Of a DNA stretch of 61,599 nucleotides, positions 3,363 to 53,965 are shown in pieces. The notes beneath the pieces are model-generated. The model did no database searches. It saw nothing but the letters and a program-made list of their open reading frames with translations, and was not told where the DNA came from. The number at the start of each line of letters is the position of its first letter. Position 1 is the stretch's first letter. The DNA is taken from assembly GCA_031260605.1 (NCBI GenBank), contig JAISLF010000064.1, forward strand, positions 1-61,599. The letters are read 5' to 3'. Origin of the DNA: Oscillospiraceae bacterium. GTDB lineage: Bacteria; Bacillota; Clostridia; Oscillospirales; Oscillospiraceae. The translations under genes and the position numbers were made by a program.

Positions 3363-3366
3363 TGCT

Positions 3367-4398
3367 TCACTTCCACAAAAACGGCGGGTATTCGTCCAAA
3401 TCACCGCGCAGGTGCCGCGCGAGCAGGAGTGACTGCGCGTACGGCACAAGCCCCCACGCGATTTTCTCGTTCAAAAACGGGTGGCTTAGCTGCTCCTGCT
3501 TGCGTTTTTGCCACGCCGTTAAAACCGCGCGGCGCGTATCGTCGTCCATTATCACCGCGCCGCTTTCCTTTACAGTAAAGCCTGATGCGTCCACCTGGCG
3601 CGTGTTTATCAGCGTTAGCACGAACCTGTCGGCAAGCGGCGCGCGCAGTTCCTCCAGCAAGTCAAGAGCCAGAGACCGCCGACCCGGCCTGTCGCGGTGC
3701 AAAAAGCCCACGTATGAGTCCAGACCCACCGAGGTCAGCGCGGACGCTATGTCGTTTCCAAGCAGCGTGTAGATAAAAGACAGAAGCGCGTTCACGCGGT
3801 CAAGAGGCGGACGGCGCGAGCGGGTGCGGAAGAAAAAATCGTCCTTGCTTTGCAGTATCATATCGTCAAAAACCGAAAAATACTGCTGCGCCGCTTCTCC
3901 CTCAATACCGCGCAGCTCGCCGAGCGTTTTTGCGCTCTGCAGCGCGGCGTAGGCATCTGCTATGAAGCCGGAGACGCGCTTTAGCTTTTCCACATCGAGC
4001 CGCAGTGAATAATCGCGCGTGGCGCGTTCTATAACCCAGCGGCTGTTGAAGAGCTTTCCCGTTAGGATATTTCTCGCGATTGCGGCGCTGGCTTCCTCGC
4101 TGTCAGACACGCGGTATTGCGTTTTGCGTAGCGTGACATTGCCCTGCTCCACACCGTGAACGCCCGCGATAAACCGCCCATGCGTGGTGAGAAAGGACAG
4201 AGATATTTTGTTCTCGGCGCACTTGCCCATAAGCGCGGGAGACGCGCCGGTATACCCAAAGGTGACGATTCCCTCCAGGTTGTGCAGCGGCACTCGCTTT
4301 ATTTCCTCGTCTTCATTAAGAATAACCACGTTTTCGCCGTCAAGCGAAAGGTACGCGTCCGGCGATGTAACATACAGCGTATTGAGCAGTATTTTCAC
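3367..4398 (-). CDS. cas1: CRISPR-associated endonuclease Cas1 (type I-C)
   Basis: 343 aa from the GTG at 4398 (VKILLNTLYVTSPDAYLSLDGENVV...). The GTG overlaps the cas4 stop as GTGA (4395-4398). The upstream part of the ORF-track ORF (to 4656) lies inside cas4 in another frame. Confidence 0.9.
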   Translation of the reverse strand: MKILLNTLYVTSPDAYLSLDGENVVILNEDEEIKRVPLHNLEGIVTFGYTGASPALMGKCAENKISLSFLTTHGRFIAGVHGVEQGNVTLRKTQYRVSDSEEASAAIARNILTGKLFNSRWVIERATRDYSLRLDVEKLKRVSGFIADAYAALQSAKTLGELRGIEGEAAQQYFSVFDDMILQSKDDFFFRTRSRRPPLDRVNALLSFIYTLLGNDIASALTSVGLDSYVGFLHRDRPGRRSLALDLLEELRAPLADRFVLTLINTRQVDASGFTVKESGAVIMDDDTRRAVLTAWQKRKQEQLSHPFLNEKIAWGLVPYAQSLLLARHLRGDLDEYPPFLWK

Positions 4399-5054
4399 TC
4401 CGACCCCCCCATTGCTCCACTGATATATTCCCGCACGCTCGTGGCTTTCGGCAGACGCGGCAGGCAGATGTCCTTTAGCGAGCAAGCGTTGCAGGACTTC
4501 GTCATTTTCACGCGCGGAGTGTACCGCCGCTCGTAATAGCCGCGCATTTCGGCAAAGCTCTCCCGCACGGCGCCGCGCAGCTCTTCGGTCAACGCAACCG
4601 CCTCGCGCCGCCGTGTTTCTCCGTAATAAAGATACGCGGTTTCGATTTCCGGGCAAAGCAGCATTTCCTCAAGGCAGAGCGCTTGCGCGCAGAGCTGGAG
4701 CCTGTCAGCGTCGTTCACCTTAGGGCTGCCGCGCTTGTACTCAATGGGACAAGGCTGCCACAGTCCCTCACGCCCGTGCAGCGCCACTCCGTTGGGATTC
4801 GCGTGAAACTCCACAATATCGCACTGCCCGGAAACGCCGAGTGTGTTTGAAAACACGGGCATTTCACGCGTAATGATGGTGTTTCCTCGCTTTTCTCTAA
4901 AAAACGGGTCGTGCGCACGCTCGTGCATTAGCCTTCCCTCAACGGTGCGCAGGTTCTCGCTCCACGCCTGCTCGATATGAATCAGCGCCCACTGGCGGCG
5001 GCAGAACGAAAAGTGCTGTATACCGGAGATTTGCAGATAATCGTCCGCGTCCAC
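4395..5054 (-). CDS. cas4: CRISPR-associated exonuclease Cas4
   Basis: 219 aa. It has a RecB-like fold signature with an N-terminal Cys (HFSFCRRQW) and a C-terminal Cys cluster (CNACSLKDIC), as in Cas4. It sits between cas7 and cas1. Confidence 0.9.
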   Translation of the reverse strand: MDADDYLQISGIQHFSFCRRQWALIHIEQAWSENLRTVEGRLMHERAHDPFFREKRGNTIITREMPVFSNTLGVSGQCDIVEFHANPNGVALHGREGLWQPCPIEYKRGSPKVNDADRLQLCAQALCLEEMLLCPEIETAYLYYGETRRREAVALTEELRGAVRESFAEMRGYYERRYTPRVKMTKSCNACSLKDICLPRLPKATSVREYISGAMGGSE

Positions 5055-5056
5055 GG

Positions 5057-5929
5057 CTACAGCAGCTCCAGCAGCGAAACGCCGTCCGGCATTGTCTTGT
5101 CAGCCTGAATATCGTAGTCACCGTACTTACGCGGAGGAGTTGTTTCGTCAACGCGTGTTGCCGTGATTTTCTCAAACAGTAACGACGCCGGGGCGTTGCC
5201 GAGAACGCTGTCGTGGCGAAAAGCGTACAGCTTTCGCGCGGACATCTTGCCTCGCGCGGCGGAATGGTCGTGCTCGAACATATTTTTAAGCGCTTGCCAA
5301 AACAGCTCAAGATCCTCTGCTGTAAAGCCGGTTTTCTTGGCGTAGTTTGCAGAGATAAAGCCCTCCGCGCGGTATAGAGCGTAGGGAACTACATATTTGC
5401 GTCCCATTGTGCGGTTCTCGCTCGCGGTTTCCTTTTCGGTGGTGGAGGCCATACGCGTAATTGTGACCTCCTGCTGCAAAATCGAGTCTTGGCTTTTCGC
5501 AAAGCAAAGCTGAATCGGCCCGCGAACCTGCCCGCACTTGTAGTCGCCCGTATCCATAACTGCGCCAAAGGTGCGTACATCAAAAAAGCGGTCGCACATC
5601 CATTCCTGTGCGCTCTTTTTTGATTCCTTTTTGTCCTCCTTTGCGGGAATTTCGAGCGCGTCATAAGCAAGCTTTTGCTGGTTGTTCAGCACAGAACCCT
5701 CGGTTACGTAAATATCGAGGTGTGAGCCGCGCTCGCTGTCCGCGTACTCGCGCGCAAGCTCGACGAAGTTTCTCACCTTGCGCTTTAAGCACACATCGGT
5801 GACGATTCCGAAGCCCGTCTGCGGGTCAATGCGCGGCATATTGCCCGCGTCCGGGTCGCCGTTCGGGTTGCCGTTTTCCACGTCGAAGTACAGCACGAAT
5901 TCGTAGCGGTTGTTAAGTATTTCAGACAT
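5057..5929 (-). CDS. cas7: Type I-C Cascade subunit Cas7c (Csd2)
   Basis: 290 aa from the ATG at 5929 (MSEILNNRYEFVLYFDVENGNPNGDPDAGNMPRIDP...), a Csd2-family signature. It overlaps the cas8c stop by 8 nt. Confidence 0.9.
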   Translation of the reverse strand: MSEILNNRYEFVLYFDVENGNPNGDPDAGNMPRIDPQTGFGIVTDVCLKRKVRNFVELAREYADSERGSHLDIYVTEGSVLNNQQKLAYDALEIPAKEDKKESKKSAQEWMCDRFFDVRTFGAVMDTGDYKCGQVRGPIQLCFAKSQDSILQQEVTITRMASTTEKETASENRTMGRKYVVPYALYRAEGFISANYAKKTGFTAEDLELFWQALKNMFEHDHSAARGKMSARKLYAFRHDSVLGNAPASLLFEKITATRVDETTPPRKYGDYDIQADKTMPDGVSLLELL

Positions 5930-6326
5930 TGTTTGTTTCCTCCGTTGTTGTGTTAGATGTTTCTTTTTTCTTCCATAGGTCGTGGTTTTGGTGATAATAG
6001 CCGACAATAAATCTTCCTTGGTCTTCCGCGTTCAATGTTTGCGGGAATCCTGTAGAGTCGAACTCCTCCATTATACTGCCGACAAGCTGATTGAAATAAA
6101 CCGCCCTGCCCTTGTTAAAGTCGGATTTTGCCAAGTGCTTTTTATGCAGCAAAAGCATTGATGTAAATACCATTTGCGGCGCGGCAAGAGCGGTATTTAG
6201 GTATTTGTCCAAAACGCTTGAGTTCACATTTCCAAGCGCCTCCTGCTGCGCCTTCTCAAATACCGCAATAAGCCGTCCCAATAAATACCCCCGATTTCTC
6301 TCCTCTAAATTCAGTGCCACTGTCAT
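5922..6326 (-). CDS. Putative internally translated Cas11c (small subunit), nested in frame in the 3' end of cas8c
   Basis: An in-frame ATG at 6326 is preceded by aagaGGAGaca. The product (134 aa) starts MTVALNLEERNRGYLLGRLIAVFEKAQQEA. Type I-C systems are known to make Cas11 from an internal start in cas8c. Applying that to this locus is an inference. Confidence 0.4.
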   Translation of the reverse strand: MTVALNLEERNRGYLLGRLIAVFEKAQQEALGNVNSSVLDKYLNTALAAPQMVFTSMLLLHKKHLAKSDFNKGRAVYFNQLVGSIMEEFDSTGFPQTLNAEDQGRFIVGYYHQNHDLWKKKETSNTTTEETNNV

Positions 6327-7688
6327 TGTCTCCTCTTGTTTATTTTTCCGCGCTGTGCGGTTTAGAAATCCTTTGACTACACCCGCGCGGGTGCGGTTTA
6401 CGTTCTTATCCGCCCGAACACGCGTGAGCATTGCGTTGTACAGGCTGTATGGATACGCCGATTCGTCGAGTATGCTGCGAATCAGCGCGCCCTCAAGCGT
6501 CGGCGGGATGTTATCGTATTTCTGCTGAACCGCCGTTTCGCGCAAAATGTCAATCGGCTTTGTCAGCCAATCCCGGTCACGCTCCGATTTAATTATCGCA
6601 ATGTCCTTATAGTGCTGTCCTATGCGCTCAAGCAGATTGCCGAAGGTGTCGGAATGGAAAAAGCGGATTACGAGGCGTGTTTTTGCGGCGGAAATGCCGA
6701 GAATGTGAAACGTCACATCCTTGTCAAAGCCCGTGGTGTCCGGGATTTTCCCGCTTTCAAAGGACGACAGCAGGCTTTGTATCTTCTTTGCGGCAGGCTC
6801 GTCCAAAATGCGTTCGTCCGATTTGCCGTCGTCCCAGTGGCCGCCGAACAGTGCGGAAAACGTTTCCTCTTCGTTTCTTGCCTCACTTTCCGCCCAGAAC
6901 AACACCTTTGTGTCCGCCATTCGCACAACGTGCTTTGAATCGGCAATTAGGGCATTCAGCGCGGTGGTGTATTTATGTTCGGCAATAACTGAAACCGGTG
7001 CATTTGTACCGTTATAATCTTCTTCTTTTTTGCCTTTTTTTATAACCCTCGTAAGATTATATGACTTAAAAGAATCTTGATTGAAACCTACTACCGTCGG
7101 CTTATCCTGTCCAAACCCGCCGATATTGCCGTGTATCCGTGAAATAGGAATATCAATATCGCCTGTGACTAAACACTGCCCTTTCTCAAAAGTCGTTACC
7201 AATTTTTCATAGTGCCGCACCCACGCCGACTTTACCGCATGGCGGTTGTGGATATAGCCCTCACTCCCCTCGAGACGAAAAACAATATTGCCGGCGTCGA
7301 GCTTATCGGATAGCTCCTGAACGTCCGCGTCAAAAAATTTCAGTACGGCGGCGGCTCCGTCGTCGTCAACGCCGCCGAGGACTTCACGGTGCAGCTCGCG
7401 CGACGCCTCGCGTTTTTGCTGCCCGCGCTTTTCGTCAGCCGCGAAAAAATATCCCGTGTTATCGCACAAAAACGCGGCGTCAACACCGGAGGAGCGCTTC
7501 GGCTGCTGGGGCGTTAACATCTGCTGCGGCTTTTTCGCGTCCACGAGCGAAATCACATCGCCTGCAAGCTTGCCGTCCAAATCCAGCGTAACGCACCACG
7601 CAACAGGCGTGACCGCCCAGCCCGGCATCGCGGCATTGCCGTTTTCCGCAAGCCGATCGTAGTACCCGCAAAGCGCCTGCAAAATCAT
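5922..7688 (-). CDS. cas8c: Type I-C Cascade large subunit Cas8c (Csd1)
   Basis: 588 aa, MILQALCGYYDRLAENGNAAMPGWAV..., a Csd1-like N-terminus. It lies between cas5 and cas7. Confidence 0.9.
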   Translation of the reverse strand: MILQALCGYYDRLAENGNAAMPGWAVTPVAWCVTLDLDGKLAGDVISLVDAKKPQQMLTPQQPKRSSGVDAAFLCDNTGYFFAADEKRGQQKREASRELHREVLGGVDDDGAAAVLKFFDADVQELSDKLDAGNIVFRLEGSEGYIHNRHAVKSAWVRHYEKLVTTFEKGQCLVTGDIDIPISRIHGNIGGFGQDKPTVVGFNQDSFKSYNLTRVIKKGKKEEDYNGTNAPVSVIAEHKYTTALNALIADSKHVVRMADTKVLFWAESEARNEEETFSALFGGHWDDGKSDERILDEPAAKKIQSLLSSFESGKIPDTTGFDKDVTFHILGISAAKTRLVIRFFHSDTFGNLLERIGQHYKDIAIIKSERDRDWLTKPIDILRETAVQQKYDNIPPTLEGALIRSILDESAYPYSLYNAMLTRVRADKNVNRTRAGVVKGFLNRTARKNKQEETMTVALNLEERNRGYLLGRLIAVFEKAQQEALGNVNSSVLDKYLNTALAAPQMVFTSMLLLHKKHLAKSDFNKGRAVYFNQLVGSIMEEFDSTGFPQTLNAEDQGRFIVGYYHQNHDLWKKKETSNTTTEETNNV

Positions 7689-8371
7689 ATCGTCACCGCC
7701 TTTGCCGTGTCAATCACGCCGCGCCGCATTTTCGCGCGGAAGAATTTCGGCGTGTATTCGTACTCTTTCTTCTCTTCGTTCACGGTCTTATACTCCATAT
7801 CCCACAGCATAAAGCCGAGGTCTCGGCTCTCCGTATCCGCGTAGTAGCTCTCCGGCACGGTGTCGCCCTCTTCTATCAGCCGAAAGTGCGCTGCGAATTC
7901 GCGCGTGCCGAAATACGGCTGGTTGTAGCATTGCCCGCGCCTTGCGCGGCGATTGAACTGGTCGAGAAACTTGCCGATATTGTCGCTTTCGGTCATTTTC
8001 TCGCGGACAAGCTCAAAATGTGCGTCGATTATGTACGCCACATCGCGTAAAAGCAGTGTCGCCCGCTGCTGGCGGTCCTCGGTTATCACTTGGTGCAGGT
8101 CAATATCGCCGCCTTTTTGCGCAGTAGTTATATTGCGCGGCGGAATCTTTCCGCCAAGCTCGTTTCTCCGCACGGAATCAAAGCGAATCTCGTTTAGCAC
8201 CGTGAGCTTATCCACAACCCAGCGCATTCCGGGGTGCCAGTACACTGCCTCAAGAACTCCGCGCGCGGCAGACGGCGTAATCACGTCGTAGCTCACGCGC
8301 TCCGCCTTCATTTCGGGGCGGGTGAAGCATGCGTAATCGCCCCAAACCAAAAGTCTCACGCCGTAACCCAT
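7685..8371 (-). CDS. cas5: Type I-C pre-crRNA processing subunit Cas5c (Cas5d)
   Basis: 228 aa, MGYGVRLLVWGDYACFTRPEMKAERVSYDVITPSAARG..., a Cas5d signature. It overlaps the cas8c start by 4 nt. Confidence 0.9.
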   Translation of the reverse strand: MGYGVRLLVWGDYACFTRPEMKAERVSYDVITPSAARGVLEAVYWHPGMRWVVDKLTVLNEIRFDSVRRNELGGKIPPRNITTAQKGGDIDLHQVITEDRQQRATLLLRDVAYIIDAHFELVREKMTESDNIGKFLDQFNRRARRGQCYNQPYFGTREFAAHFRLIEEGDTVPESYYADTESRDLGFMLWDMEYKTVNEEKKEYEYTPKFFRAKMRRGVIDTAKAVTI

Positions 8372-8389
8372 AGTTTTTCCTCCTATACC

Positions 8390-10609
8390 CTAAAAAATTA
8401 ACTCTTTCATCTCAAAATCGGACACAAGCCCAAGCTTTTCTATGTAGCAGTCCGCCATATTCTCCTCGCGCAGCGCGTAAATACCCATTTCGTCTCCGAT
8501 TTCAGAAATAAAACCGTATTTATGCAGCTTTATGTAGTCATCAGCGTGGACTGAAACAGTGTACCGCTGCAAACCGCGCAGGTATTTCATCGGAAATATC
8601 GTGCCTTGCGCCTCTCGCAAAAGCTCCCGCGCCTTGTCATCATACGGGATGATCACGCTTGTTTGGTTGTCCTGAATCAGCTTGTATTTGTGTTCGATTT
8701 CCCTGTAGGAAAACGACATTTTGCGCCAACCTTCTGCAATACCGCTCAGGATTTTCTGCGCGTCCAAGTCCGTATCAAGCCCGTAGCGTAGGTTAAAAAA
8801 CTGCTCTATCGCGTCCGGCAGGAGCGGATTTGGGTGCGCTTTCATCACCTCTGTACCGAGCTTTGCCATACGCTGAAAACGACCGCGCGGCACACCGTCC
8901 TCCGGCGTGAACACAAGCACCTCACCGGGAATGGGCTCGCCGTTTTCATCGGTAAGCTCACCCTCTCGGTTACAGCGTCCCGCCGCCTGCGCGATTGAGT
9001 CGATTCCCGCGACCGAGCGATAGACGCAGGGAAAATCAATATCAACACCGGCTTCGATCAGCTGGGTTGACACTACAACACAGCGCTGATTGTTCGTCAA
9101 CCGCGCCTTAATCTCGTCAAGTACCCTTGTCCGGTGTTCGGGACACATAACCGCGCTCAGATGGTAGAAGCCGTCACTATCGCCGAGCAGGTTGAAAAGC
9201 TTTTTGGCGTGACCGCGCGTGTTTACAATACACAGCGCCTGCTTCCTCCCGCGCAGCTGCTCCGCAAGGACTTCGTTTGAGATTTCGCCGATTTGGCTGA
9301 CCTTTGTTCTCGAAAGCTCCGAAAACAGCGCGCCCGTATCCGGAACAATCTCGGTTACGGCAAGACCGTCGAGCCATTTGGGCTTAAGTGACGGCTGTGT
9401 CGCGGTGCAGAATACGACCGTTGCGCCGAAGTCCGCGACGAGGCATTTCAGAGCGGCAAGCGTCGGCAACAGCAGGTCGTCCGGCAGACTTTGCGCTTCG
9501 TCGAGGATTATAACGCTGTTTGCGATATTGTGAAGCTTGCGCGCCTTTGACGGCTTTGCGGCAAACAGACTCTCAAAAAACTGCACGTTTGTAGTGACCA
9601 CAAGCGGCGCGTCCCAGTTTTCGCACGCGAGGCGGCGGATTACGTCGCGCTCGTTTCCGTTTTCGTCACTGCCGTCCGCTTTGTTTTCGGCTCCGGCATT
9701 GCTGTGATGCTCAAGCACTAAATCACTGCCGAAAATTTCGCGGAACACGTCGGCGGTTTGCTCGGTTATTGAGGTAAACGGAATTGCGTAAATAATCCGC
9801 TTCATACCGTGCTTTTCGGCGTGCCTGAGCGCAAAGGCAAGCGACGAGAGCGTTTTTCCGCCACCCGTTGGAACAGTAAGCTTGAAAAATCCGCGCGGGG
9901 ACTCTGCGGCGGACAAGCACGCGGAAAGCACGCCGCGCCGCGCAATGCTCACAGGATTATCCTGCGGGTAAGACAGCAGTTTCTGCAGCTTTGGCACAAA
10001 CAACTCGCAATAACATGCAATCGGTGGGAGCTTCGGCCGAAGCTCGCTTTTGTCGTGCGAAGCAAAGGCCTCTGTATCCAAATAGTCAGCGTCAACAAGC
10101 GCAGAAAAAACCATTCTTGTAAGCATTGTGATGTAAAATGCCAAATGCTCTATGCTTTGCGCCTCAGTTTTAGGTAGCATAATAGACGCGGATGTCTCCG
10201 GGATGGTGCAGAGAAGCTCGCTGTCCGGGCGGCTGAGCATTTCGTCTAAGCCCTCACCATAATTCGAGGCGTCATCCGGCAGACCCCCGTGGTGACCGCT
10301 GATTATGTATGCAAGCAGCTTGCCGAGTTGTTTGCCGTATCGCGCGACGGCAATCCTCGCGCCGGCGGTTTTGTGGTCGGCGTGTATGTTTTTGCCGCGC
10401 AGCCGCTGCTGAAAGGTCTCCGTCGCCTTTCCTATGTCGTGCAACAATCCTGCGGCATAGGCAAGTTCGCCCGCGCCGAATTGCTCCGCAAATTCACGGG
10501 CAAGCGCCGCAACGGCTGTCAGGTGTGCGTCCAGAGTTTGCCATTCGGACTCCGGCAACACTTTTTTGTCGGAGTCTTCTTTAGTGTGTGCGAATACGGC
10601 GGCAGGCAT
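8390..10609 (-). CDS. cas3: CRISPR-associated helicase/nuclease Cas3 (HD + DExH)
   Basis: 739 aa. HD motifs (LLHDIGK, ISGHHGG), Walker A (VPTGGGKT) and a DEAQ box (ILDEAQ). It is the first gene of the operon. Confidence 0.93.
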   Translation of the reverse strand: MPAAVFAHTKEDSDKKVLPESEWQTLDAHLTAVAALAREFAEQFGAGELAYAAGLLHDIGKATETFQQRLRGKNIHADHKTAGARIAVARYGKQLGKLLAYIISGHHGGLPDDASNYGEGLDEMLSRPDSELLCTIPETSASIMLPKTEAQSIEHLAFYITMLTRMVFSALVDADYLDTEAFASHDKSELRPKLPPIACYCELFVPKLQKLLSYPQDNPVSIARRGVLSACLSAAESPRGFFKLTVPTGGGKTLSSLAFALRHAEKHGMKRIIYAIPFTSITEQTADVFREIFGSDLVLEHHSNAGAENKADGSDENGNERDVIRRLACENWDAPLVVTTNVQFFESLFAAKPSKARKLHNIANSVIILDEAQSLPDDLLLPTLAALKCLVADFGATVVFCTATQPSLKPKWLDGLAVTEIVPDTGALFSELSRTKVSQIGEISNEVLAEQLRGRKQALCIVNTRGHAKKLFNLLGDSDGFYHLSAVMCPEHRTRVLDEIKARLTNNQRCVVVSTQLIEAGVDIDFPCVYRSVAGIDSIAQAAGRCNREGELTDENGEPIPGEVLVFTPEDGVPRGRFQRMAKLGTEVMKAHPNPLLPDAIEQFFNLRYGLDTDLDAQKILSGIAEGWRKMSFSYREIEHKYKLIQDNQTSVIIPYDDKARELLREAQGTIFPMKYLRGLQRYTVSVHADDYIKLHKYGFISEIGDEMGIYALREENMADCYIEKLGLVSDFEMKELIF

Positions 10610-11595: not shown

Positions 11596-11750
11596 AATAT
11601 ATAGTATCATGGTGCTATTTTTGGCGCATTGTTCCGCGCAAAATCAAACTTCCTCCCTGCAACAAACTCGTAACAAAACGACGTGATTTTGTGTCGGCGG
11701 CGGGGCAAACTTATAGTAATAAAAAGTCAGCAATTTTCAGTGGTGGTGAA

Positions 11751-14700
11751 ATGAAAAAACATACAAAATCAGGGCGCAAACCCTTTTCCAGAACACTTGC
11801 GGCAACGCTTGCGGTTGTTCTTATGTTGTCCTTTGCGGCAACGGCGCTGTCGTCCTCCGGCTTAGTGCCTGAGGATGAGGTCACGGACGCTGCCGTAACA
11901 GACACGGCGAACACAGGCGACGCGGCGGGCCCGTCCGAAGAGCCGCCGTCTGACCCGACAGACGCGCCGGAGCCGACCGACGTGCCTGCGGCGGAGGTAA
12001 CGGACGAACCGGCGGACGAGCCGGCAGGCGACCCGTCCGAGGTGCCACCGACGGAAGAGCCGGGCGATGAGCCGGGTGACGCACCGACACCGGACCCGGA
12101 CGCTGCCCCGTCGGCTGAGCCGTCGGAGGAGCCGGACGCCTTGCCGGAAGAGGCGGAGGAGGACCTGCCGCTGCTGACTGCCGGCGCTCCGACGCTGACG
12201 CTCTCAGCTGTAACCACCAACGGTTCTGCGCCGCTGCCTCAGCCTTGGGACTATGTGTCAGCTTATACCTACACCACCGTTATCTCCGGCGACCCTGACG
12301 GAACCGGAACAGGGCGCGTTATTACGTTGACCGCTCCAGCGGGTATGCGTTTTAACCTCGGCGCAGTTGCGGGAAAACCAGGCATTACAATAAAATACAC
12401 CACCACGTATGCCTGGAATACCGCAAACTACGGCAAGGAAATTCAGTTTATCCTTGACGACGGCTTTAATGACAGCTTCCTGTTTCAGATTCCGGTGCTT
12501 GCCGCCGGAGCGAACACCGGAAACGCAACGACAAATAGCGCCCCCGCAGCCGCCCAGGCAAATACCGCCCTGTCCGTCGGCAATGTCATCTACAACTGGG
12601 GCTACGCCGGCAACACCACCGCACCAAAAAGCACCACCACTGCAACCGCCACCGGCAGCTGGGGCGGCACTGTGCCTGGTGCGGCACTGGAAATGGACTA
12701 TGCAATATTTAATAAGGACGTATTTACGGGCCTGTATTTAAGCGGAGAAAGCGGTGCCCTTTACACAGCGGCGACCATAACAGGCGACGGGCAAATCGTC
12801 TATTACGCACGCGTACATTCGAGCGGCTCAATGTACTACAATACGACGACGGCGGACTACAACGCCTGGCTGTTTTACACTGACCAAACCTCTGTCAAGC
12901 ACGTTCCGTTTTGGAACCTTACAGTTAAGGTTTATATACCTGACGGGCTAAGAGTATCTAACACTGCGCTTGCGTCGCTTGTTCAGAACGACGGGGACGG
13001 CAAGGGCAGTTATATACGCGTTGAAAACTGCAATCTATCCGCGCCGATAACCAACAGCTACGCGGTTACCAGAATGAAATCGCCTGTAGGCGGCGCCAGA
13101 ATAACAGGCGGAAATAACGGAACCTACGGAATTTACGGCTCCAGCGCACATTACGCTGCGAATAATCTGTTCGGCCCTACCTATGCACTGAATCTCGCTC
13201 TTGCGCTTGATGAGCCGATTTCAAACGGCAAGGTTTATACCGCACCTGATACCGAATACGAGTACGACACATATGACGAAAACGGAGATCTTGAACACGT
13301 AGTTAAAACGCTGAATCCTGTTAGAATCACTACACCGAACTTAAAGGGTATTGACGCATACGCGATTACAGCGGGAACTGCCGATGCGGCGACCGAAAAA
13401 CTGCAATACGCAACGATTACGCTGAAAAATCAGTATACCTATAACCACGCGAATTACAACGGACTGAATAAAAATGACCAGCACGTCGGCGGAACTTTGA
13501 CCTTTGAAGCAGATCCGGCAGCTTATTCTTTGCAGGAAATGCGCGTAACAGCAGCGGTTGCTGCTAATCAGTTTTGGGCGCGCGGAGGTGCGTCGGGTTC
13601 AGGCGTGCCGGCTACCGCCAACGGTGTTCAGGTTCTAAACGCCCTACGCTCCGGTTTGCCTGCGAGTACAGTTGTGGAATACGAGCTTGAGGACGGGCTG
13701 ACCTATACCGCCAACAAGACCATAACCCCACTTACGAGCTATCTGCCGCTTGTCGCGGGCGACCCTCTTTGCCAAATTCTCATTGACGACGGCGGCTTTA
13801 TATCGGTTGTCGATTTTCCCGACGCAACGGACACAAACCGTGTTGTTAAAGTCACATTCACGCTTACCAAAGGGCTAAACCTTGCCTCGGCGTTTTATTA
13901 CAATTTCAGGTACAGTTATATAGCAGACGCGGGACTTCCGGATAACGCGCCCTCCGAGGGGTCCGGCGTTCACAGGACGCAAATGGCGATTCTTCTCACA
14001 GAGCCGGGCGGCTGCACATTCCGCGACGGCGCGGCGGCTGATTCCTCACCTGTTATTACTGACGGCGCACACAGCCAGATTCAGACTATATATATCCGCA
14101 GTACGCTTGACCTGCTGCTTATGCAGACGCGCGGAATTTATATGTCCAACAGCCATACAGAAGCGGGAATTCAAGCGGGTATAAACAACACCGGTGTTCA
14201 GGAGGTTCCGTTCCTTAACGGCGGAACCGGAAATACCGCACGCTCCGCCACCATCGCGTTTGCTTACGGCTTCGTCGGCGACTCCACAAACTACACTGCC
14301 AAGCAAGGCGCGTGGCCTGTATACTACGATTTTGAAATGGCGATAAAAACAGATACGGAAGCACAAAGACGGTATCTTGAAACTGTAAAATCGTTTGATG
14401 TTCTCGCAACGATGTTCACTAACGCCAAAATTGAGTACACGACAAACCTAAGCGGGGGAGTTCAGACACTTACGCTCGGCTCAACAACGAGTTATCCGCC
14501 AACCGGCTCTGCGCTGATCGGCGCCACAACAAGCTCCTTTGGGACAAAGACATTTTCGCTCGCGGCTGATGAATATTTGACAAGCTTTGTGCTCAAGGCA
14601 GATGAATTCAAGGCTGGCGCGGTGTACTGGCGCAATACCTCACCTGTAGGAACTAACCCGGTCGGCTCCCTTTACCCGACGCAGGGCTACTGGGGCGTGA

Positions 14701-17700
14701 ACGACGACGGAAGCTATCGCGGCAGCGGCATTGTGTTCTACTCGCACCAAACCCGCAATTTCCGCAGCGACGGCACACCGATTCCTGACGCATATGCCGA
14801 ATATGCCGCCACACTTGCCACATTTGATCTGCAAACGCGCTTTTCGGGGCGGATTGACCCGCTGTCGCCCGACAGAATTGCCGAAAAATCAAGCTTTTCG
14901 TCTGCCGGCGTTACATTTCCGATAGTATTTAGAAGAACCGCAGCCGTTACGCTGATGATCAGTAATGACGCACACGGCTATTCGTTTGCGCCATATAATA
15001 ACGGCTCGGAATACACAACTGCGGCGATACCTGTACAAGTAGCACAAGGCTCAACGTTTTCAATGCCAATAAGCTTGGGAGTCGGATACGCTTATATTCG
15101 GTCCGCCGGCTCACAGGTTAACCGATACAACACCATAACGTGGATGAAGGTGAACCCGAACTTTTCATATGTCGGCACTGACCCAAAGGTTCACGTCGTA
15201 ACAGCATCTGACGGAGCAACCTGGCTGTGGATAGAAGAGGACCCCGTGAATCACAATATCACAGGTCAAGCCGCGTTTGTAGCATATCTGTCAATGCTGG
15301 CGCTGCCAACAGCGAGTGTCGGCACCACGCGTGTCGTCGATGAGCTGTACAGAACACTCGACACACGTGAGCAATACGACCGCAACTGGGGCATGACAAA
15401 CGCTGCCGCCGGCTACACCTATAATATAACGCTGCCGCCGCTTGTGCCGGACATTTTGGAGCTGTATAACGGCAATAACGGAAACGGCACAGGAAGTATT
15501 CGCGCAGTAGCGGGCTATCCCGCAACGACCAACATCCTAAAGGCGTTCACCTCGGGCGTAACGCTGCTGTCAGGCGTCGGCTCGTCATACAGCGCGGTTG
15601 ACGCAAACGCCATGTGGCGTGAGCCGCAGAGCAGTTCCCTTGTTGTACAAGCGGCAATCGGCGGCGGTTCGTCTGTGCCGGTTGCGGATTACGAGGTAAT
15701 TTTCCACTTGCCGCAAAACGGCGAGACTGTTTCGCACACGCCGAAAAATGAAGGGCCGACCGATACTGTAGTGGATTACGGTCTGCATTTGCGCGGCGCG
15801 ATAAACGACTCGCAGGCAGGCTCAATCCCGCACACGGTGGAGTACAAAATCGGCGGCACATGGTATGCGCAGGCTGCGGTTGACGCGAACGGCGGCTGGA
15901 GTGCGGTTACGAATGTAAAAGTGTTTTTCCCAAGCTATCCTCCGGAAACAACTGTCGGCATAATCCTGCCTGTCGCGCCGGACGAGTCCGCGCGAGCACT
16001 TACGCCCGGCGACCTGTCAGCCGTAACGGCAACGTACAGCTGGGGCGGCGAGCCGGCAAACAGAACCAACGCGGCGCGGTTCCTGCTGGAGAAATACCGC
16101 ATTGCGAGCACCTCCGCTACGGCGGGGTACGCGTTTAACGACACGAACAACAATAACCTGTTTGTAAACAACGCAGGTCAGGGCGAAATTAAGCGCGCGG
16201 GAATGCCCGTTGAGCTTTGGGCAGCGGACAGCACGGGCGTGCCGCTCGGCGCAGCACCTGTTGCGACGACGGCAACGAAAAGTGACGGAACCTGGGAGTT
16301 CACAGGTCAGAACAGCGACTATTATGTTGTGAAATACGTTCTTCCGGAGGGCTACAGGTTCGCGGCAAAAGGCGCTAACACAACGGCAAACGCCTCGCAT
16401 GTTGACACGGCGACGGGGCTTACGGACTTAATCAACGCAACCGGCGTTGTGGATATGACAAGCTCGCGCAACGCGGGCGTACAGGCTTCTCCGCTGGTTA
16501 AGGTAAAGTTTGTGCTGAAAAACGGCGATGAGGGCACGGAAAACGAAATTGTTGTTTCCTCCACGCAGTACGCCGGAATCATCGGCAATAACATCTGCAC
16601 ACCGGGCACAACCGCGGGCGTGAATGTGCCGACGCACTATCATCTGTCCTCAGGAGAGCCGGCAAGCCGAAATAAGGTGCTGAGCTTTGCCGACCCCGTC
16701 GCGTCCTTTGTCTGGCTTGTCGAGGGCGATCCGATTACAATCACCTACATCGGCAACAGCGGCGCAACGCCGGCGCCCGGCTCCGTTACAACCTACAACG
16801 AAACGGTGCCGTACGCGCCGAGCACACTGCAAAACAACCGCTTTGAGCGCACAGGCTACAACTTCATCGGCTGGGCAATGACAAGCACGGGTGCAGTGGC
16901 GTACCTGAACCAGTCGGCGTTTGCGAACTGGGAGTCTGAGATTGCGTGGAACGGCACTGCCGGCTCGGTGACGTTTTACGCGAAGTGGGAGGCAAACGGC
17001 GTTGCGCTCAAAATCGAGCATATTGACGTTGATGTGCCCACCGACAAGGTAATTGCCGATCAAAGCGTCACAACGGGTCACCACGACGATGACGTTACCG
17101 AGTATTACGTGACAAATCGCGCTCTGCAGCTTGACCCGACGGCGATTTACTACCCCTGCGACTCCCTCGGGAATCTGCTTCCCGCCGCGCGAATTGCGGA
17201 TGGCAGATCAATCACGCTGGACGAGACGGAGGGCAACCCGAACGTGCTCACGCTGTACTACAAGCGGGCGTTTACTGTGACATTTGACGCAACCTACGGC
17301 GAATTCCCGTTGGCGGCGGCAACAGACACTGTCGAGGTTCTGCGCAACAACAAGGTTGCGGCGGCGCAGGCGGCGACAGAAGAGGGCAAGCTCACCGCGC
17401 CTGACGACGCGTATTTCGCGCACTGGAGCGCAACGACGAGTCCCAGCGGCGGACCTGTGGATTTCTCCTTAACGGCGGACGTCACGGCAAGCGGAACGGT
17501 GTATTACGCGATTTGGAACGTGAAATACACGGTGCTGTACATTGACGAGGACACGGGCGCGGTTATTACGGACGAAACCGACGCATACACCGGCTATGCT
17601 GGGCAGAGCGCACAGAAAACCGCAAGTGTGCCGGCGGGCTACCGCTTAGCTGACGGGCAGAACGCAACGGAAACGCTTGCCGCGCTTGATACGGTCAAGG

Positions 17701-18986
17701 CAAACAATGTCATTACGTTCTACCTCAAGGAACTGACATCGGTTGCGGGCAAAAAGGTCTGGATCCACGGTGAAAACGACCGGTCCAAGTGGCCGTCCTC
17801 CGTCACGGTAAATCTGCTGGCGGACGGAACGGCGGCTGACTCACAGTCTGTAACCGACGCGACGGAAAACGCAAACGGCGAATGGGAATTTGAGTTCACA
17901 GACGTTGATTTGCGCGACGATCTCGGCAATATTATCGACTACACCGTCAGTGAGGATACGGTTACGCCGTACAACGCGGCGTACGACCAGGCGACGCATA
18001 CGATAACCAACACGTATGACGCGCAGGAGGTTTTGATTGAGGGACACAAAACGTGGGACTACGGAATCGCCTCGCCGAGCGAGCGCCCGACGGAAATTAC
18101 AGTCGTCGCGCTTGCAAACGGTGTGATTGCAGACACGCTTGTCGTCACTGAGGCGGACGGCTGGGACTACAACTTTGTCCTGCCGAGATACGACGCTGAG
18201 CACAAGCTTATCGTCTACACAATAGACGAGCTGGATGTTGCGCACTACGTTAAAACAGTGACGGGAACGGATATTCTGAATACCTTTGACCCCGACAGCG
18301 TGACGGTTACGATTTCCGGCCACAAAACGTGGGATTACGGCACAGCGCCGGAGTCCGCGCGTCCCGAAAAGCTGACCGTGCAGGTGTACGAAGGCGACCG
18401 CCTTGCCGCACAAAAGGACGTGACGGCGGCGGATAACTGGGACTACGCGTTTGAGCTGCCGAAGTATGACGCGGGCGGCAAGGAGATTGTTTACCGTGTA
18501 GACGAAGCGTCTGTGCCAGGATACACCAAGGAGTTATTCGGATATAACCTAAAAAACACGTATGACCCGACAACAAACGAAACTGTCACGATAAAGGGCG
18601 CTAAAACGTGGAAGCACGGCGCAAATCCTGCGGAAAACCGTCCGACGTCAATACAGATTTGCCTTATGGTCGGCGATACAATCATCGCCGAGAAAAAGGT
18701 GACAGAAGCGCAAAGCTGGGGTTGGACATTCACGGCTGCCAAATACGGCGAGGACGGCAAGGAGATTCAGTACCGCATTTATGAGCGCTGGCTGCCGAAC
18801 TATGACCGCAGGGTTTCCGGCTGGAACGTCACAAACACGTGGAACAACGGCTCGCCGAAAACAGGCGACATGTCGCGTATTCTTCCGTGGATTGCGATAA
18901 TGGCAGCTTCTGCCGCGGGTGCAGTGTGGGTTCTTGCACCGTGGAAACGGCGCAGCAGGGACGATGACGCGGAGCCGCAGGATTAA
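11751..18986 (+). CDS. Giant cell-wall-anchored surface adhesin (SPKTG sorting signal, Cna-B-type repeats)
   Basis: About 2411 aa from the ATG at 11751. It has a signal peptide (MKKHTKSGRKPFSRTLAATLAVVLMLSFAATA) and an acidic Pro-rich linker. It also has Listeria-Bacteroides-type repeats (GYNFIGW...VTFYAKWE) and a MucBP-like segment. Four tandem Cna-B-like repeats (GHKTWDYG...ERP..ITV) lie at ~17740-18850. The C-terminus is SPKTG, a hydrophobic stretch, then KRRSR. Confidence 0.85.
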   Translation: MKKHTKSGRKPFSRTLAATLAVVLMLSFAATALSSSGLVPEDEVTDAAVTDTANTGDAAGPSEEPPSDPTDAPEPTDVPAAEVTDEPADEPAGDPSEVPPTEEPGDEPGDAPTPDPDAAPSAEPSEEPDALPEEAEEDLPLLTAGAPTLTLSAVTTNGSAPLPQPWDYVSAYTYTTVISGDPDGTGTGRVITLTAPAGMRFNLGAVAGKPGITIKYTTTYAWNTANYGKEIQFILDDGFNDSFLFQIPVLAAGANTGNATTNSAPAAAQANTALSVGNVIYNWGYAGNTTAPKSTTTATATGSWGGTVPGAALEMDYAIFNKDVFTGLYLSGESGALYTAATITGDGQIVYYARVHSSGSMYYNTTTADYNAWLFYTDQTSVKHVPFWNLTVKVYIPDGLRVSNTALASLVQNDGDGKGSYIRVENCNLSAPITNSYAVTRMKSPVGGARITGGNNGTYGIYGSSAHYAANNLFGPTYALNLALALDEPISNGKVYTAPDTEYEYDTYDENGDLEHVVKTLNPVRITTPNLKGIDAYAITAGTADAATEKLQYATITLKNQYTYNHANYNGLNKNDQHVGGTLTFEADPAAYSLQEMRVTAAVAANQFWARGGASGSGVPATANGVQVLNALRSGLPASTVVEYELEDGLTYTANKTITPLTSYLPLVAGDPLCQILIDDGGFISVVDFPDATDTNRVVKVTFTLTKGLNLASAFYYNFRYSYIADAGLPDNAPSEGSGVHRTQMAILLTEPGGCTFRDGAAADSSPVITDGAHSQIQTIYIRSTLDLLLMQTRGIYMSNSHTEAGIQAGINNTGVQEVPFLNGGTGNTARSATIAFAYGFVGDSTNYTAKQGAWPVYYDFEMAIKTDTEAQRRYLETVKSFDVLATMFTNAKIEYTTNLSGGVQTLTLGSTTSYPPTGSALIGATTSSFGTKTFSLAADEYLTSFVLKADEFKAGAVYWRNTSPVGTNPVGSLYPTQGYWGVNDDGSYRGSGIVFYSHQTRNFRSDGTPIPDAYAEYAATLATFDLQTRFSGRIDPLSPDRIAEKSSFSSAGVTFPIVFRRTAAVTLMISNDAHGYSFAPYNNGSEYTTAAIPVQVAQGSTFSMPISLGVGYAYIRSAGSQVNRYNTITWMKVNPNFSYVGTDPKVHVVTASDGATWLWIEEDPVNHNITGQAAFVAYLSMLALPTASVGTTRVVDELYRTLDTREQYDRNWGMTNAAAGYTYNITLPPLVPDILELYNGNNGNGTGSIRAVAGYPATTNILKAFTSGVTLLSGVGSSYSAVDANAMWREPQSSSLVVQAAIGGGSSVPVADYEVIFHLPQNGETVSHTPKNEGPTDTVVDYGLHLRGAINDSQAGSIPHTVEYKIGGTWYAQAAVDANGGWSAVTNVKVFFPSYPPETTVGIILPVAPDESARALTPGDLSAVTATYSWGGEPANRTNAARFLLEKYRIASTSATAGYAFNDTNNNNLFVNNAGQGEIKRAGMPVELWAADSTGVPLGAAPVATTATKSDGTWEFTGQNSDYYVVKYVLPEGYRFAAKGANTTANASHVDTATGLTDLINATGVVDMTSSRNAGVQASPLVKVKFVLKNGDEGTENEIVVSSTQYAGIIGNNICTPGTTAGVNVPTHYHLSSGEPASRNKVLSFADPVASFVWLVEGDPITITYIGNSGATPAPGSVTTYNETVPYAPSTLQNNRFERTGYNFIGWAMTSTGAVAYLNQSAFANWESEIAWNGTAGSVTFYAKWEANGVALKIEHIDVDVPTDKVIADQSVTTGHHDDDVTEYYVTNRALQLDPTAIYYPCDSLGNLLPAARIADGRSITLDETEGNPNVLTLYYKRAFTVTFDATYGEFPLAAATDTVEVLRNNKVAAAQAATEEGKLTAPDDAYFAHWSATTSPSGGPVDFSLTADVTASGTVYYAIWNVKYTVLYIDEDTGAVITDETDAYTGYAGQSAQKTASVPAGYRLADGQNATETLAALDTVKANNVITFYLKELTSVAGKKVWIHGENDRSKWPSSVTVNLLADGTAADSQSVTDATENANGEWEFEFTDVDLRDDLGNIIDYTVSEDTVTPYNAAYDQATHTITNTYDAQEVLIEGHKTWDYGIASPSERPTEITVVALANGVIADTLVVTEADGWDYNFVLPRYDAEHKLIVYTIDELDVAHYVKTVTGTDILNTFDPDSVTVTISGHKTWDYGTAPESARPEKLTVQVYEGDRLAAQKDVTAADNWDYAFELPKYDAGGKEIVYRVDEASVPGYTKELFGYNLKNTYDPTTNETVTIKGAKTWKHGANPAENRPTSIQICLMVGDTIIAEKKVTEAQSWGWTFTAAKYGEDGKEIQYRIYERWLPNYDRRVSGWNVTNTWNNGSPKTGDMSRILPWIAIMAASAAGAVWVLAPWKRRSRDDDAEPQD

Positions 18987-24588: not shown

Positions 24589-24657
24589 AGCTAAATTCGG
24601 GACAGACGAGTACGACTGTCCCCTCCTCAAGGTGCTTACCTGAACTTGAACATTAGT

Positions 24658-24740: not shown

Positions 24741-25700
24741 GGGTTTGCTTGAACTTGGGTGCAACCGTTGAACTGCGGCGCGGGTTGCTGCGTTTGGAAT
24801 TGCGTCTTTTGCTTCGCCGCTTGGCGAAGCTAAGCGCCTGCGCGGCGGGCGGTTCCTTTCTTGTCTTGGCAAGAAAGGAACCAAAGAAGCCGCTTTTTCG
24901 CTTAGGCGATCGCGCTGCGGCAAGTGTACGTGTCCGTGCGTCCGCACCCGGACAGAATTGCCGATGGACGGGGCGTTAGGCCCCTATGTGCCGGAGGTGA
25001 GTATCGGCGGGTGGCCACAGGATTTGGCGAATCCCACCCGCACCGCGCCCTGCGCTGTGTGGTGCGGCAAGCAGTTGCGTGTCCCGACGCGCATAGCGCG
25101 AAGGTAGACGAGGACACCCAACCGCACCTACGCCGTGCGGGTGCGGTGGTTTTACACAAAATGCGGTGAGAACCAAAAGCCGGGACGATGAGGGCATCGT
25201 CCCCTACGGAGATGAAGCCCTGCGGCGACGGGGTACGAACCCGCACCGTACAGGTGCGCTGATTGCCGCAACATACCCGCCGCGTCGGGAGACGCACCTA
25301 CTTGCCGCTACAGCGGGCGGCAGCAATCGTAGCAAACCAGTCCTTCTGTGGCCACCCGTAGGGACTTCGCGGCAAGCACTACCTTACCCCAGACATCAAC
25401 CCCGCGACAGGCTTTGACCCTGCGTGCGGCGCAGCTGAGGCGTTCGTGCACTCCACCGCGATACGTCGCGGGGAATAGCAGACGACCACATTGTCACCAC
25501 CGCAGTTCCCGTATAAAAAAAGATTGCTTCTTTTAAAGAAGTCGTCCCTTTTTTGGTTACTTTTTTCCGACGAAGCGGAAAAAAGTAACCGCCCGCCGCG
25601 TAGGCGCTTAGCAGCGCGAAGCTGCCAAGCTTCACCCCAATTACAAACATAGCAACCCGCGCCGCAGGTCAACGCTTGCACCCAAATAAAAGCAAAGCCC
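24741..25700 (+). repeat. Large ORF-free, hairpin-dense element, copy 1 (candidate structured ncRNA or non-autonomous element)
   Basis: It aligns over ~0.9 kb with 38690-39600 in the same orientation. A 22-bp closing helix (24829-24850 with 25591-25612) is extended by ~60-nt imperfect inverted repeats (24741-24802 vs 25638-25700). No reading frame is conserved between the copies. Confidence 0.8.
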
Positions 25701-25732
25701 GGTCTCGACGCTTTACGAGTCCGGGCTTTGCT
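25691..25732 (-). terminator. Rho-independent terminator of the sugar ABC operon
   Basis: agcaaagcccgg...ccgggctttgct stem, followed on the minus strand by ttttatttggg. It lies 24 nt downstream of the permease stop. Confidence 0.75.
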
Positions 25733-25755
25733 GTAATTCTTTGTTTTGCGTGTAA

Positions 25756-38662: not shown

Positions 38663-38689
38663 GGGGGCGCGGGGGCGGTTGCGTTCAGC

Positions 38690-39962
38690 TGTGCGCCGGA
38701 GGGTGCGGTGTTTGTAAGTGCGGCGAAGCTGCGCCTCGCGACTTTGCTTTACGCCTGCGCGGCGGGCGGTTCCTTTCTTGTCTTGGCAAGAAAGGAACCA
38801 AAGAAGCCGCTTTTGGGCTTAGGCGGGTTGCGTTGCTGCAAGTGTACGTGTCCGTACATCCGAACCCAGACAGAGCTGCCGACTGACGGGCTTTAGCCCT
38901 ATTTGCCAGAGATAAGTGCAGGTGGGTGGCAACCATAATTTAGCGAAGCCAACCCGCACCGCGCCCTGCGCTGTGTGGTGCGGCAAGACGTTGCGTGCCC
39001 CGACGCACGAAGTGCGGAGGTAGACGAGGGCACCCGACGCACCTTCGCCGTACGGGTGTGGTGGTTTAAGGCAATAGTCGAAGAGTTCCAAAAGCAGGGA
39101 CGATGAGGGCATCGTCCCCTACAGAGATGAAGACCTGTGGCAACGGGGACGCGATAGCACCGTACAGGTGCGCTGATTGCCGCAATGCACCCGCCCCACC
39201 GGGACACACACCACATTGTCGCACAACGTGCGGCAGCAATCGTAGCAGCAATTACCTTCCGGTTGGCACCCGACGGCAGTTTGCGGCAAGTTACAGCATT
39301 ACCTAAGTCTCCAACGCCGCGACAGGCTTCGCCCCTGCGTGCGGCGGTGCGGAAGTGTTCGCCGTGACCACCGCAATACGTCGCGGGGAAAGGCACATTC
39401 CGCATTGCCGCCACCGCAGTTCCCGTATAGAAAAAAGATTGCTTCTTCTAAAGAATTCGCCCCTTTTTGGTTACTTTTTCCGGCGAAGCGGAAAAAGTAA
39501 CCGCCCGCCGCGCAGGCGCTCTGCAGCGCGAAGCTGCCAAGCTTCGCTGCAATTACAAACACCGCAACCTGCGCCGCAGACAACACGCTTGCACCCGAGC
39601 AAAAGCAGAACAGAGTGGCGAAGCAACCCCCGGGCGGCAGATTGCCGCCCTACACCCGCCAAAAATCCGGCGGTAACCACCACAAGGGACGCTGAGGGCA
39701 GCGTCCCCCACAAACGCAAAGCTCTGACAAAAGCAAAAACCCAGCCAAACACCGCACCCTGTGCCGCAGGAAATACGCTTGCACCCAAGTAAAAGCAAAG
39801 CAGAACGGCGAAGCCCCCCGGGCGGCAGATTGCCGCCCCTATGCCCGCCGAAAGTCCCTGCGCAACCGCGACAAGGGACGCTGAGGGCAGCGTCCCCTAC
39901 AGAAGTACGAAGCCCTGAAATAAGCAAAAACAATCCCCGCCCCGCAAAAAAACACCCTGCAG
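38690..39962 (+). repeat. Large ORF-free, hairpin-dense element, copy 2, with a ~190-nt tandemly duplicated tail module
   Basis: Homologous to 24741-25700. A perfect 16-bp closing helix (38752-38767 with 39503-39518) encloses a 735-nt core. The tail units start at 39555 and 39745. The element ends at the -35 of the response-regulator promoter. Confidence 0.8.
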
Positions 39963-53763: not shown

Positions 53764-53863
53764 CTGGTCGCGCTCCTTTCAAAATATTTTTGCCGTGGAG
53801 AGGAAAAGTTACCTCCCACGTCGGTGTTGGGCGGTCGTGCTTTTTCCGTCACGGTGGGGGGTG

Positions 53864-53965
53864 ATGTAGGGCAATGTAGGCTAAAACATAAACTTTTCAT
53901 AGAACGTATTTTTTGAAAATTTCTTGTATAGAGGAGTTTTATATTTCCCCTACATTGCCCTACAT
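53864..53965. repeat. Iteron pair (ATGTAGG x2, inverted x2) flanking a 68-bp AT-rich spacer; candidate replication origin
   Basis: atgtagggcaatgtagg (53864-53880) and its perfect reverse complement cctacattgccctacat (53949-53965). They lie immediately downstream of the primase-helicase gene. Confidence 0.45.

Follow-up and report, generated by a model that had tools for sequence, protein, structure and literature searches.

Within a 61,599-nt contig of an Oscillospiraceae bacterium (JAISLF010000064.1; the whole stretch is referred to here as the window), two ~1-kb regions at 24741-25698 (copy 1) and 38663-39626 (copy 2) are probably, with somewhat better than even confidence, copies of a lineage-restricted, high-copy, non-coding and non-autonomous repeat, a giant element that resembles both REPINs (repetitive extragenic palindromic doublets forming hairpins) and MITEs (miniature transposable elements with inverted repeats). 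We find that the repeat is present in many copies, is dispersed to unrelated loci and has no coding capacity, and that a module of two hairpins, termed hp1 and hp2, at each of its ends is far better conserved than the core between them, recurs on unrelated cores elsewhere, and has its hp2 hairpin kept by covariation. The element is best read as selfish or domesticated mobile DNA rather than as a new giant structured RNA, since high copy number, dispersal, lineage restriction, lack of coding capacity, conserved inverted palindromes and shared ends point to a repeat element and not to an RNA gene. It is probably mobilized through its end hairpins.

When the window is compared with itself by BLASTN, 24835-25694 and 38752-39607 align in the same orientation (82% identity over 867 columns); this search and further alignments bear out the two same-orientation copies proposed in a preliminary description made from the sequence alone, and all sequence features listed there are found where it had placed them. 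The element is ~0.96 kb long, with a G+C content of ~58%. Six identical blocks quoted in that description each occur exactly twice in the window, once per copy (starts in copy 1/copy 2: 24835/38752, 25037/38953, 25182/39097, 25244/39158, 25317/39230 and 25501/39415), the first of these being 59 nt long. The closing helix of copy 1 pairs 24829-24850 with 25591-25612 over 22 bp, with one G.T at 24840/25601, and that of copy 2 pairs 38752-38767 with 39503-39518 over 16 perfect bp. Outside this helix, the outer inverted repeats of copy 1 (24741-24802 vs 25638-25699) are 85% complementary, and inverted arms of ~150 nt close each copy (24741-24889 vs 25548-25699 in copy 1, with 78% identity). The extent first given for copy 2 needs correction on the right: homology in several other copies reaches ~39626, so that this boundary is not sharp.

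From the outside in, the order is outer arm, hp1-hp2 module and ~650-nt drifting core, followed by an inverted module and arm. hp1, CGCCTGCGCGGCGGGCG, is a 17-nt imperfect GC palindrome of 7 bp with a conserved T.G; hp2 follows directly and has, between GTTAC and GTAAC, a loop with a T-rich stem before it and an A-rich stem after it. hp1 is found four times in the window, only as two inverted pairs with partners ~740 nt apart. The features are as follows, with the strand given where one applies.

24741-25698: copy 1, whole, ~958 nt, from self-BLAST, alignment, flanking genes and a promoter/terminator scan.
24741-24834: copy 1 5' outer arm, pairing with 25607-25699 (inverted repeats); it holds a second GC-rich quasi-palindrome, ctgcggcgcggg, ~65 nt outside hp1.
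24835-24851, plus strand: copy 1 5' hp1, CGCCTGCGCGGCGGGCG, followed by T-rich sequence and thus terminator-like when read inward.
24851-24882, plus strand: copy 1 5' hp2 hairpin, GGTTCCTTTCTTG..CAAGAAAGGAACC, from alignment and cross-family covariation.
24890-25500: copy 1 core, non-coding, ~75-83% identical to the copy 2 core, with local hairpins.
25182-25204, plus strand: central hairpin, GGGACGATGAGGGCATCGTCCCC, with compensatory stem variants and an invariant AGGG loop.
25501-25554: copy 1 A/T-rich conserved block, cgcagttcccgtata, with an AAAAAAG..CTTTTTT hairpin; the copy 2 equivalent is 39415-39468.
25555-25590, minus strand: copy 1 3' hp2, GGTTACTTTTTTCCG..CGGAAAAAAGTAACC, 15 of 15 bp paired.
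25590-25606, minus strand: copy 1 3' hp1, reading CGCCTACGCGGCGGGCG on that strand.
25607-25698: copy 1 3' outer arm (inverted repeats).
38663-39626: copy 2, whole, from alignments and the promoter scan; its right end is diffuse.
38752-38799, plus strand: copy 2 5' hp1 (38752-38768) and hp2 (38768-38799), identical to copy 1.
39097-39119, plus strand: copy 2 central hairpin.
39415-39518: copy 2, the best-conserved block of the family, comprising the A/T hairpin region, 3' hp2 (39469-39502) and 3' hp1 (39502-39518).
39556-39931, plus strand: tandem tail units, each a repeat of the 3' outer arm together with three small hairpins, one of them GGGACGCTGAGGGCAGCGTCCCC.

The tail consists of two tandem ~190-nt repeats of the 3' outer part of copy 2 (39556-39745 and 39746-39931), which look like solo or partial ends in an arrangement of the kind known from bacterial interspersed mosaic elements (BIMEs). 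Their GGGACGCTGAGGGCAGCGTCCCC hairpin is a compensated variant of the central hairpin, which is present four times in the window and on the plus strand every time. A description of the whole element as one palindrome was considered and set aside: beyond the arms, a significant internal inverted pair is found in copy 1 only (25064-25091 with 25281-25308), and copy 2 has no significant counterpart.

Sequence identity peaks at the subterminal hp1-hp2 module, not in the core or outer arm, which identifies this module as the conserved part of the element. Between the window copies the 5' module is 100% identical, compared with 0.61-0.83 in the surrounding outer arm and core. Family-wide values derive from further copies annotated as proteins (see below), for which only those bases fixed by the amino acids, about two-thirds of positions, can be read, in well-aligned stretches only and with a partial bias toward the query; this bias does not affect the module values of the first protein set, as these come from outside the query region. 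By this measure, identity to copy 2 is 0.96 in the 5' module, 0.93-0.98 in the 3' module and 0.95-0.96 in the A/T block beside the 3' module, with lower values for the core (0.75-0.90) and the outer arms (~0.85). Averaged over pairs of ~100 copies, identity is 0.97 at 39415-39518 vs 0.83-0.85 in the core and outer arm, and the copy 1 A/T block is part of a ~100-nt stretch that is ~97% identical among copies.

To enumerate the family, the junk open reading frames (ORFs) of copy 2 were used as protein queries, with the expectation that gene callers had annotated similar junk elsewhere. A 171-aa ORF matches 26 proteins and a 95-aa ORF over the 3' end matches 88, 79 of them new relative to the first set. 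These >100 proteins are all "hypothetical" and nearly all originate from one Oscillospiraceae metagenome-assembled genome (MAG; LBO63_00030 to LBO63_08990) and from JGI contigs whose lengths agree with it, with one weak match in a second MAG, LBQ91. Among the matches of the 95-aa ORF, 60 LBO63 proteins with locus tags of their own all fall on one 3' segment, so that this genome carries at least 60 copies, on ~48 contigs. The copies differ by ~16%. The preliminary description had asked for such a count together with a search for target-site duplications; the count obtained in this related MAG speaks for a non-autonomous element, and no duplication is found at the window copies. As a matter of annotation noise, the repeat has given rise to >100 spurious "hypothetical protein" entries (e.g., MDR0813527.1 and MDR0813309.1), with one MAG alone accounting for ~64.

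In a protein-to-DNA alignment that allows for frameshifts, all matches fall colinearly on the minus strand of the element, with frame changes that vary by copy, and because frames switch between copies we conclude that the element is non-coding. This agrees with the earlier claim that ORFs are not conserved: the ORFs are short, none is common to both window copies, the translations are low-complexity junk, and many 1-2-nt indels separate the copies. We therefore give next to no credence to a decayed protein-coding family, such as dead transposase genes, or to an assembly artefact. Gene callers did annotate ORFs in many copies, as a decayed family would lead one to expect, but frames are not kept between copies, no Pfam domain is detected in the >100 junk-ORF proteins and the translations are Arg/Cys/Ala-rich; an artefact is at odds with the recurrence of the element in an independent MAG assembly.

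BLASTN of copy 1 against phage and plasmid collections gives no match, nor does a pattern scan of viral contigs with two internal blocks, and an internal 20-mer finds only six matches in GTDB representative genomes, all by chance, so that no GTDB representative genome carries that internal block. The hp1 pattern has two matches in viral contigs, both rejected as chance occurrences inside coding sequence.

The end module, on the other hand, is found on other cores. A metagenome scan with a 21-nt end-module motif yields 16 loci, six of which have real modules (L009, L010, L018, L020, L022 and L023), with a solo module at L024; L011, L014 and L021 were discarded as chance matches within coding sequence, and the remaining loci, whose match site was not read, lack both a paired module and, at the BLAST cut-off applied, any similarity extending past the 21-nt pattern. 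L018, L020, L022 and L023 form one family of ~600-nt near-complete palindromes with inverted modules and a core unlike that of the window element; in L018 (1030-1628), L020 (1431-2078) and L023 (594-1160) the arms reach up to ~290 nt at ~77% identity. Each end of these palindromes has two GTTTCGCCTGCGCGGCGGGCGG (hp1) motifs at a spacing of ~70 nt, and the family shares the hp1-hp2 module of the window element. L009 is a 738-nt element between inverted modules with yet another core. Across 15 ends, 7 of the 15 hp2 pairs are changed on both sides, giving 20 double-changed cells vs 5.6 ± 2.3 in shuffles (0 of 500 reach 20) and ≤5 in slid controls, and the T.G of hp1 is at the same stem position in 11 of the 15 ends. 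Because the module is common to unrelated cores and hp2 covaries, we take the end module to be the functional unit and the core to be interchangeable cargo.

The preliminary description offered two readings, a non-autonomous element or a large structured RNA. The first is supported by the dispersed copies (at least 60), the lack of coding capacity, the conserved modules and their presence on unrelated cores; the second, in which many gene copies would encode a novel, large (~0.8-1 kb) structured non-coding RNA with the arms as a closing or processing helix and the core as the functional fold, we consider improbable. What recommends it is folding energy far below that of dinucleotide shuffles (whole element: plus strand, z = -17; minus strand, z = -11), along with eight pairs having double changes between the window copies in RNAalifold and a central hairpin with compensatory variants and an invariant loop. 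A weak promoter-like TTTAGA-17-TATACG is also found by eye on the minus strand in the conserved A/T block, scoring 8 of 12 and thus below the 9-of-12 threshold at which a promoter scan finds no site inside the element. Most of the folding excess of the whole element resides in its arms; taken by themselves, the cores reach z = -3.6 and -6.1 in copy 1 and z = -3.0 and -2.9 in copy 2, and therefore have no strand preference.

Other tests run counter to a large RNA. A search of Rfam with both copies finds no gathering-score match, and permissive searches at E ≤ 1-10 return only spurious sub-threshold microRNA or leader matches or nothing; GOLLD, ROOL, OLE, HEARO, group II introns, RNase P and tmRNA are among the families not matched. 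The minimum-free-energy architectures of the two cores differ, and when one copy supplies the predicted structure, substitutions in the other disrupt 49-68 of 74-91 changed pairs, near random and with inconsistent strands, with 2-9 compensated pairs vs 3-4 by chance. In reconstructed copies the alifold consensus is 84% Watson-Crick, about as ~86% sequence identity predicts; among its departures, G.U pairs number 30 for the plus and 21 for the minus strand, next to 38 other mismatches, and one pair truly covaries. Local hairpins in 103 copies depart by 148 G.U on the plus strand, 102 on the minus strand and 290 other mismatches, and the arms of six elements by 80 G.T, 66 A.C and 188 transversion mismatches. 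These counts in arms, consensus and local hairpins, which for the wider family come from partial reconstructions, show no strand bias and no consistent global covariation, and the argument made earlier from three G-U pairs for a plus-strand RNA does not survive them. In codon-determined bases of ~100 further copies the core exhibits almost no double changes and essentially one covarying pair. The core is moreover the least conserved part, and in other organisms these end modules enclose a core of unrelated sequence. Copy 2, placed as it is between divergent promoters, receives no read-through transcription, and we know of no free-standing RNA gene that reaches 60 or more copies in a genome.

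Only a handful of local hairpins are kept, and no conserved global fold is seen. The maintained structure consists of hp2, the T5/A5 vs T6/A6 variants, the central hairpin GGGACGNTGAGGGCANCGTCCCC and two small stems from the preliminary description, whose compensatory differences are real (gtgTcc/ggAcac vs gtgCcc/ggGcac; cgcGc..gCgcg vs cgcAc..gTgcg; and the T6/A6 vs T5/A5 stems). A DNA-level hairpin element explains the listed compensatory changes equally well, and such changes are expected for hairpins acting as single-stranded DNA; template-switch correction of quasi-palindromes can also yield them. The hairpin density of the core would then be a property of the founder sequence.

Comparison with known large RNAs leads to a similar picture. 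GOLLD, ROOL, OLE and HEARO/omega RNA share with the element a size range, a location in Firmicutes and dense predicted structure, but here there is no covariance-model match, and no conserved global fold or covariation is seen in the available data. Large ornate RNAs of this kind are present as one or a few copies, or else linked to a protein gene, rather than as 60 or more free-standing copies.

The closest likeness is to REPINs, which are defined by two inverted, highly conserved imperfect palindromes around a poorly conserved, hairpin-forming spacer, reach hundreds of copies and persist in lineages (PMC3337134). The element shares with REPINs and REP-BIMEs, as characterized in that study and in the RAREFAN preprint, two short imperfect palindromes that are inverted and highly conserved. 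It likewise has a spacer that is far less conserved yet hairpin-prone (0.83 vs 0.97 here), tens to hundreds of intergenic copies in a single lineage, with no target duplication seen at the two window copies, and a mosaic and tandem arrangement of module pieces. It differs in having a spacer of ~650-740 nt vs 34-110 bp and a length of ~1 kb vs about 90-100 bp, an extra hairpin (hp2) and an outer arm at each end, no GTAG-type head, and, beyond the arms, a core that is not a simple palindrome, where a REPIN is one hairpin. The host here is a Firmicute; REPINs have been described mainly in Proteobacteria and are mobilized by RAYT (HUH/Y1) transposases. Palindrome-associated transposable elements (PATEs) derived from IS200/IS605 are similar in having subterminal imperfect hairpins as likely recognition sites and in lacking a target duplication, of which none is seen at the window copies, but their left-end and right-end hairpins are on the same strand and are not inverted repeats, unlike those of the window element, and no TnpA or TnpB gene is near the element. 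A relationship of hp1 to CRISPR repeats, to which it is superficially similar, was rejected: the resident type I-C repeat, GTTTCAATCCACGGACTCCGCGCAGGAGTCCGAC, differs from hp1, which is found only as inverted pairs and in no repeat-spacer array, and no spacer matches the element.

With MITEs such as Correia, ERIC, QMITE and MITEAba12 the element has in common that it is non-coding, flanked by inverted repeats, intergenic, multi-copy and without an internal transposase. Prokaryotic MITEs are typically <500 bp and AT-rich, with 4-30-bp terminal repeats and flanking direct repeats; stable stem-loops are predicted for their transcripts or single-stranded DNA, and these elements may carry terminator- or promoter-like sequences (PMC10969869). 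The element, by contrast, is 0.96 kb with ~150-nt arms at 78%, ~58% G+C, no direct repeats seen and its best conservation in a subterminal position.

These properties bear on the main rival explanation, a classical MITE derived from an insertion sequence (IS) and moved, by cut-and-paste or copy-paste, by a DDE transposase encoded elsewhere, the long arms being extended terminal inverted repeats to which transposase could bind at several sites, like the ends of Tn7, Mu or IS21-type elements. We regard this as unlikely. Inverted ends and a non-coding, intergenic, high-copy character are what it predicts, the two GC-rich motifs per end, ~65-70 nt apart and clearest in L018, L020, L022 and L023, would serve as binding sites, and different cores with the same ends are reminiscent of MITE families from one IS. 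It is difficult to reconcile with the lack of visible direct repeats at either window copy, with an outermost ~90 nt that is less conserved than the subterminal module, with ragged ends followed by tandem partial units, with a length, arm length and G+C content outside the usual prokaryotic MITE range (PMC10969869), and with the lack of any IS with matching ends in Pfam scans of window ORFs or at L010. The DDE_Tnp_1 transposase of L010 was considered as the autonomous partner and rejected, since that IS has its own unrelated terminal repeats. In L010 (1-1646) the transposase gene is at 305-1438, ~220 nt from an hp1-hp2 module, with terminal repeats GGGGCGCGCATTCACTTGCGTTAAC at ~281 and ~1597; judged from its sequence, this IS is a nested or adjacent insertion and not a partner of the element.

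For the giant-repeat reading itself, we tentatively favor, at a confidence clearly short of even, a REPIN/BIME-like route through single-stranded DNA and an HUH enzyme as likelier than classical DDE cut-and-paste, on the basis that no target duplication is seen, conservation is subterminal, the imperfect palindromes have a fixed T.G and module tails are in tandem. The modules would act in cis as sites for a trans-acting enzyme that copies the element, and their single-stranded DNA hairpins may be recognized by a putative HUH/Y1-type, RAYT- or IS200-like enzyme.

The genomic setting is consistent with dispersal, the flanks of copies 1 and 2 being unrelated at two loci in 61.6 kb. On one side of copy 1 an ABC permease gene ends with its stop codon and a terminator, the last bases of the copy overlapping the left arm of the terminator hairpin (25685-25738); on the other, a minus-strand promoter (24686-24658) is followed by an Old Yellow Enzyme-type oxidoreductase gene. 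The neighbors of copy 2 are the minus-strand promoter of the znuA operon (38662-38634), the -35 box of which the left end of the copy abuts, and a divergent response-regulator gene. Outside the repeat, the oxidoreductase 5' leader contains a hairpin, GGGACAGTCGTACTCGTCTGTCCC, at 24600-24625 on the minus strand, in the interval between promoter and start codon.

That both window copies lie immediately upstream of a minus-strand promoter and gene raises the idea of a host cis-regulatory cassette, a bidirectional terminator/insulator or portable promoter that was spread by recombination, is kept for its effect on neighboring genes and is no longer mobile. Copies do sit between transcription units, both module ends are flagged as terminator-like by the scan, with an inward GC hairpin and T-rich tract, and modules conserved amid ~16% divergence imply ongoing selection. 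We nevertheless find this reading highly doubtful: a terminator has no need of a 17-nt sequence conserved across organisms, the 650-nt drifting core is left with no role, the T tract is interrupted (GTTAC) and sequestered in hp2, and the common orientation is based on two copies only. Under the preferred reading of a giant mobile repeat, the inward GC hairpin and T-rich tract at each end may have a side effect on the host, in that a copy may insulate neighboring transcription units.

Several observations weigh against the giant-repeat reading. No target-site duplication is visible at either window copy, although where the copies end is uncertain. The flanking oxidoreductase has as its closest homologue a Logan protein that is only 65% identical and not syntenic, so that no empty site is seen. 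Pfam finds no transposase domain among the 40 window ORFs scanned and no partner enzyme has been found, the only transposase near a module being that of L010 with its unrelated terminal repeats. At 0.96 kb, with ~58% G+C and ~150-nt arms, the element is far from typical MITEs and REPINs. Any copying burst is old, because copies differ by ~16%. In the two-copy test, two of the four strand/reference combinations, one per strand, beat random placement of substitutions, and compensatory changes in some local hairpins make some RNA-level constraint possible. The family-wide comparison, finally, is of amino-acid-determined bases and not of DNA.

A combined reading, which we view as distinctly unlikely, would make hp1-hp2 the hallmark of an undescribed superfamily of mobile elements, giant REPINs of uncultured Firmicutes, which in this lineage carry a transcribed large RNA as cargo. 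Its ends may carry 0.4-0.75 kb of unrelated cargo and be moved by a putative HUH-type enzyme, possibly single-copy and domesticated, and the RNA may be transcribed on the minus strand from the A/T block, with the terminator-like ends as its limits; a cellular function of this kind may explain the persistence of at least 60 copies that are ~16% diverged.

If the element is indeed a giant mobile repeat, ~2-3% of a small gut Oscillospiraceae genome is a single ~1-kb repeat (estimated from at least 60 copies in ~2-3 Mb), REPIN logic operates at ten times its usual size in a phylum with few such systems described, and the known size range of non-autonomous bacterial repeats is widened. The hp1-hp2 module provides a sequence handle for finding the mobilizing enzyme. 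In practical terms, the repeat breaks assemblies, yields dozens of spurious "hypothetical proteins" per genome and can pass for a structured RNA.

The remainder of the window has other features of note. A complete type I-C CRISPR-Cas locus (46-10609) comprises an array at 46-2810, with 41 copies of GTTTCAATCCACGGACTCCGCGCAGGAGTCCGAC and 33-36-nt spacers, none of which match the rest of the window, and minus-strand genes for cas1 (3367-4656), cas7 (5057-6007), csd1/cas8c (5922-7688), cas5d (7685-8371) and cas3 (8390-10609). A 2431-aa ORF on the plus strand at 11691-18986 has repeated Cna_B domains and probably encodes a giant surface adhesin. A small prophage-like or phage-satellite-like island at 48703-60681 encodes a large terminase, a fused prohead protease-capsid, a portal, a D5-type primase, a helix-turn-helix regulator and two tyrosine integrases; it is adjoined at 45-48 kb by a low-GC (34-44%) segment with radical SAM and CAAX-protease genes. 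The sole gathering-score Rfam match in the window is a pemK RNA (RF02913) at 61486-61586 on the minus strand, with 44 bits, at the window edge.

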